From NCBI RefSeq assembly GCF_016903815.1, contig NZ_CP069973.1: 64,000 bases of DNA, one strand, 5' to 3'. The translations under genes and the position numbers were made by a program. The DNA comes from Escherichia coli. GTDB lineage: Bacteria; Pseudomonadota; Gammaproteobacteria; Enterobacterales; Enterobacteriaceae. The notes under the pieces are model-generated. The model made no database searches. It had not been told where the DNA came from and saw only the letters and a program-made list of their open reading frames with translations. Shown here in pieces: positions 6,030-52,928 of this stretch. The number at the start of each line of letters is the position of its first letter. The stretch's first letter is position 1.

Positions 6030-6685
6030 AACTGCAAGGGGTAATTTTCGATCTGGATGGTGTAATCACCGATACCGCGCATCTGCATTTCAAGGCGTGG
6101 CAGCAGATTGCCGCTGAAATTGGCATCAGCATTGATGCGCAGTTTAACGAATCCCTAAAAGGGATCAGCCGCGATGAGTCTCTGCGACGCATTCTGCAAC
6201 ACGGGGGCAAAGAGGGCGACTTTAACCCGCAGGAAAGGGCGCAACTGGCGTATCGCAAAAATCTGCTCTACGTCCACTCACTGCGCGAACTGACGGTTAA
6301 TGCTGTGCTGCCCGGCATTCGCTCTTTGCTGACAGATCTCTGCGCACAGCAGATCCCTATAGGGCTGGCTTCTGTCTCCCTGAATGCGCCGACGATTTTA
6401 GCAGCGCTGGAGCTGCGCGAGTTTTTCACCTTCTGCGCGGACGCTTCCCAACTTAAAAACTCGAAACCGGACCCGGAAATCTTTCTCGCCGCCTGTGCCG
6501 GACTGGGCGTGCCGCCGCAGGCATGTATCGGTATTGAAGATGCGCAGGCGGGCATTGACGCCATTAACGCCAGCGGTATGCGCTCGGTGGGGATCGGCGC
6601 GGGCTTAACCGGGGCGCAATTATTGTTGCCCTCAACGGACTCCCTGACCTGGCCGCGGTTATCGGCCTTCTGGCAAAACGTATAG
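6026..6685 (+). CDS. ycjU: Beta-phosphoglucomutase (HAD superfamily)
   Basis: 219 aa; N-terminal [12 protein letters not shown] motif. Confidence 0.9.
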
Positions 6686-6698
6686 CAAAGGAATCAAC

Positions 6699-7781
6699 AT
6701 GGCTCAGCTTTCGTTACAACATATTCAAAAAATCTACGATAACCAGGTGCATGTGGTGAAGGACTTCAACCTGGAAATTGCCGATAAAGAGTTCATTGTC
6801 TTTGTCGGTCCGTCAGGCTGCGGTAAATCGACCACCCTGCGCATGATTGCCGGGCTTGAGGAGATCAGCGGCGGCGATCTGTTGATCGACGGCAAACGAA
6901 TGAATGACGTTCCAGCCAAAGCGCGCAATATTGCGATGGTGTTCCAGAACTACGCGCTGTATCCGCATATGACGGTCTACGACAACATGGCGTTTGGCCT
7001 GAAGATGCAAAAAATCGCCAAAGAGGTGATTGATGAGCGGGTGAACTGGGCGGCGCAAATTCTCGGCCTGCGTGAGTACCTGAAACGCAAGCCGGGGGCT
7101 CTTTCTGGCGGGCAACGCCAGCGTGTGGCGCTCGGGCGGGCGATTGTGCGTGAAGCGGGCGTGTTTTTAATGGATGAACCGCTCTCTAACCTTGATGCCA
7201 AGCTGCGCGTACAAATGCGCGCAGAGATCAGCAAGCTGCATCAGAAACTGAACACCACCATGATCTACGTGACCCACGATCAGACCGAAGCGATGACCAT
7301 GGCGACGCGGATTGTGATTATGAAGGATGGGATTGTTCAGCAAGTAGGTGCGCCGAAAACGGTTTATAACCAACCCGCGAATATGTTTGTTGCCGGATTT
7401 ATTGGATCACCGGCGATGAATTTTATTCGCGGCACGATCGATGGCGATAAATTCGTTACTGAAACGCTTAAATTAACCATTCCCGAAGAGAAATTAGCGG
7501 TTCTGAAAACACAGGAAAGTTTGCATAAGCCCATCGTGATGGGAATACGCCCGGAAGATATTCATCCGGACGCGCAAGAGGAAAATAACATTTCCGCCAA
7601 AATTAGCGTGGCAGAATTAACCGGTGCGGAATTTATGCTCTACACCACGGTTGGGGGGCACGAGTTAGTGGTCCGTGCTGGTGCGTTAAATGATTATCAT
7701 GCAGGAGAAAATATCACTATTCATTTTGATATGACTAAATGTCATTTCTTTGATGCAGAAACGGAAATAGCAATTCGCTAA
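6699..7781 (+). CDS. ycjV: MalK-like sugar ABC transporter ATP-binding protein, apparently intact here
   Basis: 360 aa; Walker A GPSGCGKST, LSGGQRQR signature, Walker B; full MalK-like C-terminal domain. Confidence 0.85.
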   Translation: MAQLSLQHIQKIYDNQVHVVKDFNLEIADKEFIVFVGPSGCGKSTTLRMIAGLEEISGGDLLIDGKRMNDVPAKARNIAMVFQNYALYPHMTVYDNMAFGLKMQKIAKEVIDERVNWAAQILGLREYLKRKPGALSGGQRQRVALGRAIVREAGVFLMDEPLSNLDAKLRVQMRAEISKLHQKLNTTMIYVTHDQTEAMTMATRIVIMKDGIVQQVGAPKTVYNQPANMFVAGFIGSPAMNFIRGTIDGDKFVTETLKLTIPEEKLAVLKTQESLHKPIVMGIRPEDIHPDAQEENNISAKISVAELTGAEFMLYTTVGGHELVVRAGALNDYHAGENITIHFDMTKCHFFDAETEIAIR

Positions 7782-49065: not shown

Positions 49066-49352
49066 CTTATCTATCCCCTTAACGCCGGGTGGCGGAACTA
49101 ACTGCTGCACTGCAAAATTTGAATCCCGCCGTCATGTTCATACGCCTCGGGCTGGCTACTTAACCCCTGACCACTGCCTGGTAACTCGAAGTATTGCCCG
49201 GCGTTCTGTGGGGCGGGGTGGGTTGGTAGGTATATAATGTACTTTGTGTTCATCATTGTAAAGTACTTTAAGTACATTTTATGTATAAAAAAATGAGACG
49301 GGATAAAGTGAAGCACAAACCCGGAGGGGGACGCTACCGGATTTATGCTGGT

Positions 49353-49772
49353 TTAAGAGGCTTTTTGTTTTTTCTTTCGTGCTAACTCTTCGTAAATTGC
49401 ATTGTACTTCTGTTTTTTCTCCTCAAGAGTTTTTAAAAGTTCATCTGTCTCACTGTCAGGGAGCTCGTCCAGAAGGTCAATGATGATTTTTTGTCTTGGA
49501 TTTAACTCCTGATAGAAACGTATCTGTCCACTTTCTTCTGTATCCTCTCCCAAAAGATAGGTTGGTGTTGTTCCAATGAGTGTTGCTAATTCCCTTAATT
49601 TCTCTCGGCGAGGAATTGTTTCACCATTAAACCATTTGCTAACCGCTTTTGGTGTTAATTTCATTCGACGGGCAATTTCTGCCTGCCTTCCATGTTGTTC
49701 ATAACCAGCGTTTTCACAGGCTAGCGCAAGCCTACTGGCGAACTCTTTACGCGCTTTATCTTCATGAACCAT
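49353..49772 (-). CDS. racR: Prophage repressor RacR (cI-like, XRE HTH)
   Basis: 139 aa; HTH region; divergent from ydaS. Confidence 0.85.
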   Translation of the reverse strand: MVHEDKARKEFASRLALACENAGYEQHGRQAEIARRMKLTPKAVSKWFNGETIPRREKLRELATLIGTTPTYLLGEDTEESGQIRFYQELNPRQKIIIDLLDELPDSETDELLKTLEEKKQKYNAIYEELARKKKQKAS

Positions 49773-49851
49773 AAGTTCAATGATATTCGCTCTTGAATGT
49801 ACTGTCAGTTCTGTTATAGCATGTACTCAAAGTTCACATTGTGAGGGTGAT

Positions 49852-50106
49852 ATGAACCAGAAAACACTTGAAGATGTAATCAAAACTGTTCGCGTTTCTG
49901 TTGTGGCCGACGTTTGTGGTGTCAGCCAAAGAGCAATCTACAAATGGATGGATAACGGAAAATTGCCTCGCACAGAATATACCGGCGAAACAAATTACGC
50001 TGAAAAAATCGCTCATGCATCAAACGGATTATTTTCTGCCGATGCAATTTTAACTATTGGCAGAAATAAAACTACTACGAAAAAGCTGATGGGAGTTGAT
50101 TCATGA
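49852..50106 (+). CDS. ydaS: Cro-like HTH protein YdaS; start uncertain (ORF opens at 49780)
   Basis: GAGGG SD before ATG 49852; 4 nt overlap with ydaT. Confidence 0.7.
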   Translation: MNQKTLEDVIKTVRVSVVADVCGVSQRAIYKWMDNGKLPRTEYTGETNYAEKIAHASNGLFSADAILTIGRNKTTTKKLMGVDS

Positions 50107-50525
50107 AAATCAAGCATGAGCACATCGAATCAGTGTTGTTAGCCCTGGCAGCCGAAAAAGGGCAGGCGTGGGTCGCTAACGCAATTACTGAAGAATATCT
50201 GCGCCAGGGGGGCGGCGAATTGCCCCTGGTACCAGGCAAGGACTGGAACAATCAGCAGAATATCTATCATCGTTGGTTGAAAGGTGAAACGAATGCGCAA
50301 AGGGAAAAAATTCAGAAACTGATCCCTGCGGTTCTGGCAATTCTTCCTCGCGAGCTGCGTCACCGACTCTGCATCTTCGATACCCTGGAACGCCGTGCAT
50401 TACTGGCGGCACAGGATGCACTGAGTACGGCAATTGATGCGCATGATGATGCAGTCCAGGCCGTTTACCGTAAAGCACATTTCAGCGGCGGCGGTTCTCC
50501 TAGCGATTCTGTCGTAGTGCATTGA
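50103..50525 (+). CDS. ydaT: Rac prophage protein YdaT
   Basis: 140 aa; coupled to ydaS. Confidence 0.85.
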   Translation: MKIKHEHIESVLLALAAEKGQAWVANAITEEYLRQGGGELPLVPGKDWNNQQNIYHRWLKGETNAQREKIQKLIPAVLAILPRELRHRLCIFDTLERRALLAAQDALSTAIDAHDDAVQAVYRKAHFSGGGSPSDSVVVH

Positions 50526-50602
50526 TTGAAATTAATCGTACCGAACTGTTTTGTTCGGTATCAGTTAAATGTAACGCTGCGAGCGTTACAAGGTGAAAAC
50601 AA

Positions 50603-51391
50603 ATGGCTTCAAACTGGATAAAGCTCGAAGTTATTACGCCGGATAAGCCGGAAATATTCAGGCTTGCTGAGATTCTGAATATTGATCCAGATGCCGCATT
50701 AGGGAAAGTCATTCGCTTCTGGGCATGGGCGGATCAACAAATGATAGACGGTAACGCAGAGTGTAACGCTCGCGGCGTTACAAAAAGTGCAATAGATCGC
50801 ATCACTTTTATGGCTGGTTTTGCTGATGCGTTAATTCAGGTTGGATGGCTGGTCGAAACTAATGGTGTGTTGTCGCTTCCTAACTTTGAGCGCCATAACG
50901 GGAAAAGCTCTAAAAAACGGGCGGTTACAAACGAGAGAGTAACAAAAATACGAGAACTGAAACGAAAAGGTAACGCTGCCAGCGTTACAAAAACGGATCA
51001 AAAAGCGTTACCAGAGGAAGAGAAAGAGGAAGATATAAATACTTATCTCCCCCTAAATCCCCCTCGCCAAAAACGAGCGTCTAAAAAATTCGAACCGGAG
51101 GCTATCGAGCTGCCTGACTGGTTGCCGGAAACACTCTGGCATGAGTGGGTTCAGTTCAGGCAGGCATTGCGAAAACCGATTCGAACGGAGCAGGGCGCTA
51201 ACGGGGCGATACGGGAGCTGGAAAAATTCCGCCAGCAGGGTTTTTCACCTGAGCAGGTGATTCGACACAGCATCGCCAACGAATACCAGGGCTTGTTCGC
51301 GCCGAAAGGTGTTCGACCTGAGACGTTACTCCGACAGGTTAACACCGTCTCGTTACCGGATAGTGCGATCCCGCCAGGCTTCAGGGGGTAA
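50603..51391 (+). CDS. ydaU: Replication initiator (lambda O-like) YdaU
   Basis: 262 aa; palindromic repeats in the 5' third; followed by DnaC-like ydaV. Confidence 0.8.
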   Translation: MASNWIKLEVITPDKPEIFRLAEILNIDPDAALGKVIRFWAWADQQMIDGNAECNARGVTKSAIDRITFMAGFADALIQVGWLVETNGVLSLPNFERHNGKSSKKRAVTNERVTKIRELKRKGNAASVTKTDQKALPEEEKEEDINTYLPLNPPRQKRASKKFEPEAIELPDWLPETLWHEWVQFRQALRKPIRTEQGANGAIRELEKFRQQGFSPEQVIRHSIANEYQGLFAPKGVRPETLLRQVNTVSLPDSAIPPGFRG

Positions 51392-51397
51392 CTGACC

Positions 51398-52144
51398 ATG
51401 AAAAATATTGCGACAGGCGACGTTCTTGAACGTATCCGCAGACTGGCCCCGTCACATGTAACCGCGCCATTCAAGACGGTAGCGGAGTGGCGCGAGTGGC
51501 AACTTTCCGAAGGCCAGAAACGTTGTGAGGAGATCAACCGTCAGAATCGTCAGTTGCGGGTGGAAAAAATTCTGAATCACTCTGGCATCCAGCCATTGCA
51601 CCGCAAATGCTCGTTTTCGAATTACCAGGTGCAGAACGAAGGGCAGCGATACGCGTTGAGTCAGGCGAAATCCATCGCTGATGAACTGATGACCGGGTGT
51701 ACAAATTTTGCGTTCAGCGGAAAACCTGGTACCGGGAAGAACCACTTAGCGGCAGCTATCGGGAATCGCCTGCTGAAAGACGGTCAGACAGTGATTGTGG
51801 TTACCGTGGCTGATGTTATGAGTGCCCTGCACGCCAGCTATGACGACGGGCAGTCAGGCGAAAAATTTTTGCGGGAACTGTGCGAAGTGGATCTGCTGGT
51901 TCTTGATGAAATTGGCATTCAGCGCGAGACGAAAAACGAGCAGGTGGTACTGCACCAGATTGTTGATCGCCGGACAGCGTCGATGCGCAGCGTGGGGATG
52001 CTGACAAACCTGAACTATGAGGCCATGAAAACATTGCTTGGCGAGCGGATTATGGATCGCATGACCATGAACGGCGGGCGATGGGTGAATTTCAACTGGG
52101 AGAGCTGGCGTCCGAATGTCGTCCAGCCAGGAATTGCGAAGTAA
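51398..52144 (+). CDS. ydaV: DnaC-like helicase loader (lambda P equivalent)
   Basis: 248 aa; Walker [11 protein letters not shown]; Walker B LLVLDEIG. Confidence 0.9.
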
Positions 52145-52166
52145 TTTTTACCGGGAGAAAAATTTA

Positions 52167-52928
52167 ATGGAGACTGTTTTTGACGTACTGAAAGCAATGG
52201 GAAAAGCCACATCCATAGAACTTGCTGCGCGACTTGATATCAGTCGTGAAGAAGTGCTGAACGAACTATGGGAACTGAAAAAGGCTGGTTTCGTTGATAA
52301 AAGCGCGTACACCTGGCGTGTGGCTGATAACAACGTTCAGCAGGAACAGCCAGCGCCGGCAGAACTGCCGGAAGAAACTACCACGGCAACAGTCGCGAAA
52401 ATTTCAGAGAGCGATTTAACTGCGACGATTGAACAACGTGGACCACAAACGGCGGATGAGCTGGCTACATTGTTTGGTACCACATCACGCAAAGTGGCTT
52501 CAACGCTGGCAATGGCAATCAGCAAAGGTCGTCTGCTTCGCGTAAATCAGGGCGGTAAATTTCGTTACTGCATACCGGGCGATAATTTACCAGCAGAGCC
52601 GAAAGCAGCATCGGTAGCGGAAACTGCTGGTAAGGCCTTTCCTCAGCCCGCAGGTGTTGCGTTACCAGTACAGGAGGCTGCAACACAGGAAGATATTAAA
52701 ACAGAAACTGTGGCGGACATTGTGCAGTCGCTGCCATCGTTTACTGAAACGCGAGCGGATGACCTGGTTTTACCATCACTGCATATGGCAAACCGCGAAC
52801 TGCGTCGGGCGAAAAATCATGTCCAGAAGTGGGAGCGTGTCTGCGCCGCGCTGCGGGAGCTGAACAAGCACAGGGATATTGTACGACAGATTACTGATTC
52901 TTCCCGCCATGTTGCATCGGAAAAGTGA
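52167..52928 (+). CDS. ydaW: Tandem winged-helix protein, apparent full-length form of the K-12 ydaW remnant
   Basis: ORF 52116-52928; start at [12 protein letters not shown]; two wHTH-like segments. Confidence 0.55.

Follow-up and report, generated by a model that had tools for sequence, protein, structure and literature searches.

What is the role of a 19-bp palindrome that occurs three times in front of and within the replication initiator gene of a Rac-like prophage? The window analyzed, a 64-kb stretch of Escherichia coli DNA (contig NZ_CP069973.1), contains these repeats in a region that is 100% identical to the Rac-like prophage of E. coli strain 7/2. In that strain the gene order is recE, kilR, sieB, repressor, cro-like gene, ydaT, a gene annotated as 'hypothetical protein', and ydaV. 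The cassette in question is carried by about 680 of 5,426 complete E. coli genomes. A preliminary description took the repeats for the likely Rac origin of replication, embedded in its initiator gene. We consider it probable, from the sequence features presented below, that the GTAACGC heptamers forming the palindrome are iterons, the predicted binding sites of the N-terminal domain of the initiator in whose gene they lie, and that they belong to a lambda-style origin. A literature search found no published description of the GTAACGC motif, which is no proof of absence.

Repeats and the gene that encloses them

The palindrome GTAACGC-N5-GCGTTAC is present in exact form at 50571-50589, 50763-50781, and 50970-50988, as first reported, and no further copies were found in the 64 kb even with up to two mismatches. 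Shuffled sequence is expected to contain 0.17 copies, and none of 100 shuffles reached the observed three. Eight exact GTAACGC heptamers lie within 441 bp (50571-51011), versus 12 in the remaining 63.5 kb. All 12 of the latter (4100-52665) are on the minus strand, a bias that is probably an effect of codon usage and gene strand.

The heptamers form three clusters. Cluster 0, the inverted pair GTAACGC tgcga GCGTTAC (50571-50589), is intergenic, located between a ydaT-like ORF (50103-50525) and the initiator gene (50603-51391, plus strand), and touches the AAGGTGA ribosome-binding site of the initiator gene. The other two clusters are inside this gene. Cluster A comprises a solo plus-strand half-site (50751-50757) and, 12 bp further on, the pair GTAACGC tcgcg GCGTTAC (50763-50781). 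The solo copy falls within four codons that are inserted here in comparison with TL-2011b-type genes. Cluster B comprises the pair GTAACGC tgcca GCGTTAC (50970-50988), where the N-terminal domain ends and a disordered linker begins, and a terminal solo half-site on the minus strand (51005-51011; GCGTTACC on the top strand) that directly precedes a homopurine tract. The GCGTTACC-AGAG junction recurs in most family members. Both solo half-sites had been noticed before; the second lies where it was placed, and the first begins at 50751 rather than 50752. Counted from the ATG, the half-sites are arranged as +/- at -32, +/+/- at +148/+160/+172, and +/- then - at +367/+379/+402, so that the clusters are located at -32, +148 to +178, and +367 to +408. 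Two degenerate cores, GTTAC (50924-50928) and GTAAC (50939-50943), came from sequence reading and a core-5 scan and are weak candidates only.

No DnaA boxes were found near the locus. Between ydaT and the initiator gene, at 50539-50560, there is an inverted repeat with an 8-bp stem, TACCGAAC-tgtttt-GTTCGGTA. It is terminator-like on the minus strand only and by its position could be the end of an oop-like antisense RNA.

The initiator gene encodes a 262-aa protein with an N-terminal domain (residues ~1-123), a disordered linker (~125-147), and a DnaT-like C-terminal three-helix domain. The gene had been identified as ydaU, an assignment that must be withdrawn. Only the C-terminal 124 aa match K-12 YdaU (BLASTP, 81% identity), and the N-terminal domain is unrelated to DUF1376, which forms the N terminus of K-12 YdaU. 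The ORF is a mosaic in the ydaU slot, with a DnaT-like C-terminal half that is YdaU-like and 135 unrelated N-terminal residues. A Pfam search found no DUF1376 in the window protein, which matched no Pfam-A family even at E <= 10, and hhalign detected no remote homology between its N-terminal domain and that of K-12 YdaU (probability 0.1%). The whole protein belongs to phrog_2509, 'replication initiation protein' (PHROGs, 4.7e-88). PHROG 678, 'O-like', matches residues 76-236 only, mainly the shared linker and C-terminal domain.

An AlphaFold model based on a 77-sequence alignment has residues ~10-100 of the N-terminal domain at pLDDT > 90, with helices and a beta-hairpin, and the predicted fold may be winged-helix-like. 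In the model the linker (125-147) is disordered and the C-terminal domain is a confident three-helix structure. A Foldseek search of the PDB gave no significant match, and comparison of the whole-family profile with PDB sequences returned nothing useful. The in-gene clusters coincide with the least constrained parts of the protein, the loop at residues 47-60 and the linker; the loop, encoded by cluster A, has lower pLDDT.

The C-terminal domain is homologous to that of E. coli DnaT (phmmer versus PDB: 2ru8, E 4.4e-5; 9zbt, E 2e-4). The homology spans DnaT residues ~90-179 and includes the C-terminal tail, in which VNTVSxPDSxIPPGFRG is common to both proteins. The initiator tail (51338-51388), VNTVSLPDSAIPPGFRG, is nearly identical to the DnaT C terminus. 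The earlier claim that a DnaC-like loader directly follows is correct: ydaV (51398-52144, plus strand) encodes a DnaC-like helicase-loader ATPase (NCBIfam PRK12377, 6e-152; DnaC model, 2e-91; PHROG 50). The initiator-ydaV pair mirrors chromosomal dnaT-dnaC. The shared tail and the parallel gene pair hint that DnaT is a phage initiator minus its origin-binding domain. DnaT shares the C-terminal three-helix domain and tail but has no origin-binding N-terminal domain, and it acts in PriA-dependent restart. A DnaT_C motif was noted earlier on a phage-derived O-like protein, DopC, which, unlike the initiator gene described here, was reported to be without iteron-like sequences (PMC5509034).

Conservation of the half-sites and co-variation with the N-terminal domain

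An IMG/VR scan for the exact palindrome identified at least 120 contigs. Of the 120 listed, 81 encode a homologue of the N-terminal domain (32-71% identity), and in 79 of these 81 a site is found at +139 to +165 or +334 to +424 from the ATG of the homologue. Of the 39 listed contigs that lack a homologue, 33 have only one, isolated palindrome, the pattern that chance would produce. Within the IMG/VR matches listed, the palindrome is essentially confined to the gene family of the N-terminal domain.

For an analysis of conservation, relatives were picked by protein only, via tblastn of phage genomes and a protein-alignment search, and the best 80 of at least 536 found by the latter were kept, yielding 74 distinct regions at 31-100% amino acid identity. 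The upstream site (-32 to -44) is present in 48 of the 74 regions with 13 spacer forms, site 2 (+148/+160) in 68 with 18 spacer forms, and site 3 (+334 to +424) in 67 with 23 spacer forms. Site-anchored count matrices show that the 14 arm positions are almost invariant across all three sites and that the 5-nt spacers vary. These matrices were preferred to protein-alignment entropy, which performs well at site 2 but is blurred at site 3 by in-frame indels.

Could the repeats simply reflect a recurring peptide, xNAxxVT, or chance? Sites 2 and 3 of the window do encode similar peptides, CNARGVT (in the loop of the N-terminal domain) and GNAASVT. However, site 1 is non-coding, and site 3, which is translated as xNAxxVT in 70 genes, is read in another frame, as VTxxALxK, in 27. 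Third-codon positions in the site-2 arms are invariant versus a mean entropy of ~0.89 at other third positions. The invariance of the arms beyond codon need and the occurrence of site 3 in two frames indicate that coding constraint is insufficient as a cause. A peptide or chance origin, scarcely credible in our assessment, is effectively refuted by the shuffles (expectation 0.17), the arm matrices, and the two-frame reading of site 3.

The functional unit appears to be the half-site of 7 bp, repeated with a period of 11-12 bp. The 19-bp palindrome was correctly described as a sequence but not as the unit, given the arrays found in relatives. In one relative (L107), for example, a single plus copy is accompanied by six minus copies in cluster A and by three in cluster B, and cluster B of another (L050) contains four direct copies. 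Neighboring heptamers are most often 12 bp (151 cases) or 11 bp (33 cases) apart, with multiples at 23/24 and 33. Exact heptamers average 5.2 per gene region (-150 to +480) versus 0.07 per 630 bp of flank. Since half-sites occur in either orientation on this period, a plus/minus pair reads as a 19-bp palindrome.

These arrangements bear on whether the palindromes function as hairpins in RNA or single-stranded DNA, with possible roles such as mRNA processing, translation control, or primosome assembly. Transcription crosses all three, each could form a 7-bp stem with a 5-nt loop, and the minus strand at 50988-50970 scores as terminator-like. Hairpin formation would explain conserved pairing, but it is the arm sequence itself that is invariant and identical in every copy, and no Rfam match was found. 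The direct arrays and non-pairing solo half-sites that are common in relatives disfavor a hairpin function, which we judge highly improbable, and agree with a protein in which each subunit recognizes one heptamer.

The identity of that protein is suggested by distant members of the family. Where the N-terminal domains are only ~32-47% identical, other half-sites occupy the same two clusters in the gene: GTCCGC in Salmonella epsilon15, Klebsiella BUCT711, Pseudomonas phiPSA1, and Ralstonia RPZH6, GTAGAC in Ralstonia phage Raharianne, and GTCAC in a Vibrio phage. The four half-site classes track clades of the N-terminal domain rather than the host; Raharianne and RPZH6, both phages of Ralstonia, differ in class. 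The genes around the initiator vary and include methylases, antirepressors, DnaB, DnaC, P-like genes, or none of these. The downstream partner may be DnaC-like, P-like, or DnaB-like, and in some relatives, such as epsilon15, there is none. Given these variable neighbors, the N-terminal domain is the sole constant partner of the sites. In epsilon15 (2555-2610 and 2834-2895) GTCCGC half-sites in plus-plus-minus-minus order are followed by AGAGAAGAGAAGAGAAGAGAAGA and then TATTAAA, the same architecture. No origin feature is annotated in the RefSeq stretch of epsilon15 that was examined.

Alternatively, the heptamers may be bound by another protein, either a host factor or a phage regulator such as the CII-like YdaT. 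Site 1 is only 46 bp past ydaT, and YdaT-type proteins bind inverted repeats (PMC9986795). However, the YdaT/CII-like consensus in that study is TTGATT-N6-AATCAA, which is present separately at 50096-50113. Furthermore, heptamers accompany the N-terminal domain in phages of Xanthomonas, Pseudomonas, Vibrio, and Ralstonia that have different neighboring genes, and the half-site class shifts with the clade of the domain within one host genus (Raharianne versus RPZH6). A binder other than the initiator is very unlikely. Regarding the YdaT-type motif itself, the copy at 50096-50113, TTGATTCATGAAAATCAA, is a perfect inverted repeat that overlaps the ydaT start codon, and a 10/12 copy at 50522-50539 overlaps the ydaT stop. 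Across the window such matches are no more numerous than expected by chance, yet the perfect copy is located exactly at ydaT.

The homopurine tract and a proposed mechanism of initiation

The A-rich stretch originally noted after the repeats is confirmed by composition, with GC content of 0.37-0.43 and AT skew of ~+0.6 over 50900-51060. Within it we propose as DNA unwinding element a plus-strand tract at 51013-51048, comprising a homopurine run (51013-51033) and then an AT-rich 17-mer (GATATAAATACTTATCT). No other homopurine run in the 64-kb window is as long, and 51018-51048 ranks within the least stable 0.9% of 30-bp segments. The tract is moderately AT-rich only (~28% GC over 32 bp), and part of its composition could be driven by the protein, since it encodes the charged linker.

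The tract is a family feature. In nearly all members of all four half-site classes, the last half-site is followed by (GAAGAG)n-type homopurine sequence, a short AT-rich stretch, and a C-run motif. Among 77 representatives, the median length of the longest homopurine run is 23 nt, and in 74 of them this run starts at +330 to +470. Within 2 kb around the gene, AT excess is strongest at +400 to +440 (+0.10 to +0.12, SE 0.01; 67 representatives). In the 45 nt past the last half-site, 107 of 115 Arg codons (93%) are AGA or AGG, versus 26% elsewhere in the same genes. This interval was set by the last half-site alone, avoiding circularity with the homopurine run, and the excess of AGR codons indicates that the purine strand is under selection at the DNA level. 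The bordering C5-TAAAT-C5 motif (51049-51063, plus strand) is common to K-12 Rac and recurs across the family. In most loci it is found ~60-80 nt past the last half-site, in variants such as C5-TAA-C5 that are often followed by G5, and it encodes PLNPP-like residues.

The relationship between the clusters and this tract is relevant to the possibility that the initiator binds the sites solely as autoregulatory operators or transcription roadblocks, with the true origin elsewhere. Autorepression through inverted repeats is common among plasmid Rep proteins, and here cluster 0 abuts the ribosome-binding site and the clusters are small and far apart. However, the upstream cluster is the least conserved: TL-2011b-type relatives and most distant ones lack it, while the in-gene clusters are universal. 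No promoter-like site was found upstream of the gene, and the lack of a sigma-70 promoter there leads us to set aside a classical operator-at-promoter reading of site 1. Moreover, the last cluster is always joined to the DNA-level-selected homopurine, A-rich tract, which an operator would not need, and the replication module showed no further cluster of repeats or AT-rich candidate. A purely regulatory role, although less remote than the alternatives above, is unlikely.

We favor the lambda-type reading based on the confinement of the motif, its conservation beyond coding need, its co-variation with the N-terminal domain, and the selected tract. None of the sequence tests that might have contradicted this reading did so. 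From these features we infer binding, unwinding, helicase recruitment, and origin activity, possibly as follows. Initiator subunits would bind heptamers via the winged-helix-like N-terminal domain, a plus/minus pair taking a dimer. Occupancy of cluster B, perhaps aided by clusters A and 0 through looping, would strain the adjoining tract. The homopurine, A-rich sequence at 51013-51048, predicted to be the most easily melted DNA in the coding sequence of the operon, would then distort and open, and the DnaT-like C-terminal domain together with the DnaC-like YdaV would deliver host DnaB. Transcription of the early-right operon would cross the region, as at ori-lambda, and cluster 0, at the ribosome-binding site, may also damp expression of the initiator itself. 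With clusters ~200 bp apart and two or three half-sites in each, an O-some-like wrap is not obvious.

A more far-reaching interpretation can be offered tentatively, although we doubt it as a whole. The N-terminal domain would be a widespread, Pfam-unmatched origin-binding domain described here for the first time. It has at least 536 relatives in IMG/VR, in phages that infect Escherichia, Salmonella, Xanthomonas, Pseudomonas, Ralstonia, and Vibrio. The recognition code of the domain would be readable from genomes as GTAACGC, GTCCGC, GTAGAC, or GTCAC, always with a 12-bp period. The origin would be tripartite, with clusters ~200 bp apart joined by looping or wrapping of ~400 bp of the initiator gene. 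The upstream cluster would additionally brake translation or transcription, a universal (GAAGAG)n tract would be the opening site, and the geometry would be unlike that of the lambda O-some.

Relationship to K-12 Rac and to known origins

Comparison with K-12 Rac clarifies which part of the replication module is distinct. Homology detected by blastn is confined to 50097-50523 (ydaT) and 51018-52500, so the 494 bp at 50524-51017 are the sole stretch between ydaT and ydaV without K-12 Rac DNA homology. This stretch holds the coding sequence of the N-terminal domain and all eight half-sites. The K-12 cassette (6225-6722 of the K-12 Rac locus) instead encodes the unrelated DUF1376 domain and has its own repeats; GTAACGC heptamers are absent from it. 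The two prophages share the slot ydaT-initiator-ydaV and the C-terminal domain of the initiator, and ydaV and the A-rich tract with C5TAAATC5 are ~95% identical. Both cassettes join the same A-rich tract and C5-TAAAT-C5 motif. The content of the cassettes and their shared flanks suggest a joint exchange of DNA-binding domain and repeat set, with the A-rich tract, C-terminal domain, and loader remaining constant. The locus thus appears to hold, in the corresponding slot of a Rac-like prophage, a specificity cassette distinct from that of K-12.

The repeats in K-12 ydaU are five or six copies of (A/G)TGTTCAA, one inverted, that are tightly clustered at 6591-6707 (codons 118-154), just ahead of the shared A-rich tract. 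It is plausible that they are the iterons of the known oriJ. Plasmids based on oriJ were reportedly described by Potrykus et al. in 2000. K-12 Rac has been reported to have an active, functional origin, oriJ (PMC3945230), in conflict with another report in which it is called replication-defective (PMC11014345). As its gene is other than K-12 ydaU, the locus in the window is other than K-12 Rac oriJ. The original proposal of a Rac origin in the initiator gene therefore survives in its lambda-type layout and loader, which the sequence tests support, but not in its identification with K-12 Rac oriJ.

Gene O of lambda carries ori-lambda in its middle, as iterons and an AT-rich tract; for unwinding, this tract and two of the iterons are enough (PMC7466680). 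The window locus resembles ori-lambda of lambda and the Stx phages P27 and 933W in several respects (PMC7466680). Repeats are inside the initiator gene at the boundary between N- and C-terminal domains, an AT-rich tract with a purine-rich strand follows them, and a helicase-loading partner gene is immediately downstream in the early-right operon. Repeat number alters protein length, and the 19-bp sites have dyad symmetry. On the other hand, the N-terminal domain has no detectable sequence relation to lambda O or Phage_rep_O (Pfam), the C-terminal domain resembles DnaT, and the partner resembles DnaC instead of lambda P. The repeat is a 7-bp half-site on a 12-bp period in two or three clusters, versus four to six contiguous 19-bp iterons in the lambda group. 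The likeness to lambda drawn initially thus stands for repeats within the initiator gene ahead of an AT-rich tract but not for repeat arrangement, where three clusters ~200 bp apart replace four contiguous iterons.

Similarities also exist to iteron plasmids such as pSC101, F, P1, R6K, and pPS10, which have short repeats with a helical-turn period, an initiator of the winged-helix type that may be present here, and an easily melted tract (PMC4980987 for the class). Inverted copies could serve autoregulation. By membership the locus is neither lambda O nor K-12 YdaU/oriJ; functionally it would be a lambda-type origin. The layout is that of the textbook ori-lambda and overturns no principle, but its carrier is a large family of phage initiators outside Pfam. 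What appears unusual is the geometry, three clusters ~200 bp apart, along with a clear dual-coding signature in the gene.

If this interpretation is true, it would provide a sequence-level definition of origin and cognate initiator domain for many Rac-like prophages and for phages of plant and animal pathogens, the replication modules of which are now labeled 'hypothetical' or 'primosomal protein I'. Mosaicism of the ydaU slot would represent the swapping of ori-specificity cassettes, allowing predictions as to which co-resident prophages do or do not share replication specificity. The gene would also be an example of a dual code, in which DNA sites dictate loop and linker residues, a single site serves two reading frames, and the homopurine tract imposes rare AGR codons.

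The replication cassette is not the only difference from K-12 Rac. The immunity region (49229-50096), with the repressor and cro-like genes, is also non-homologous, so at least two cassette swaps separate this prophage from K-12 Rac.
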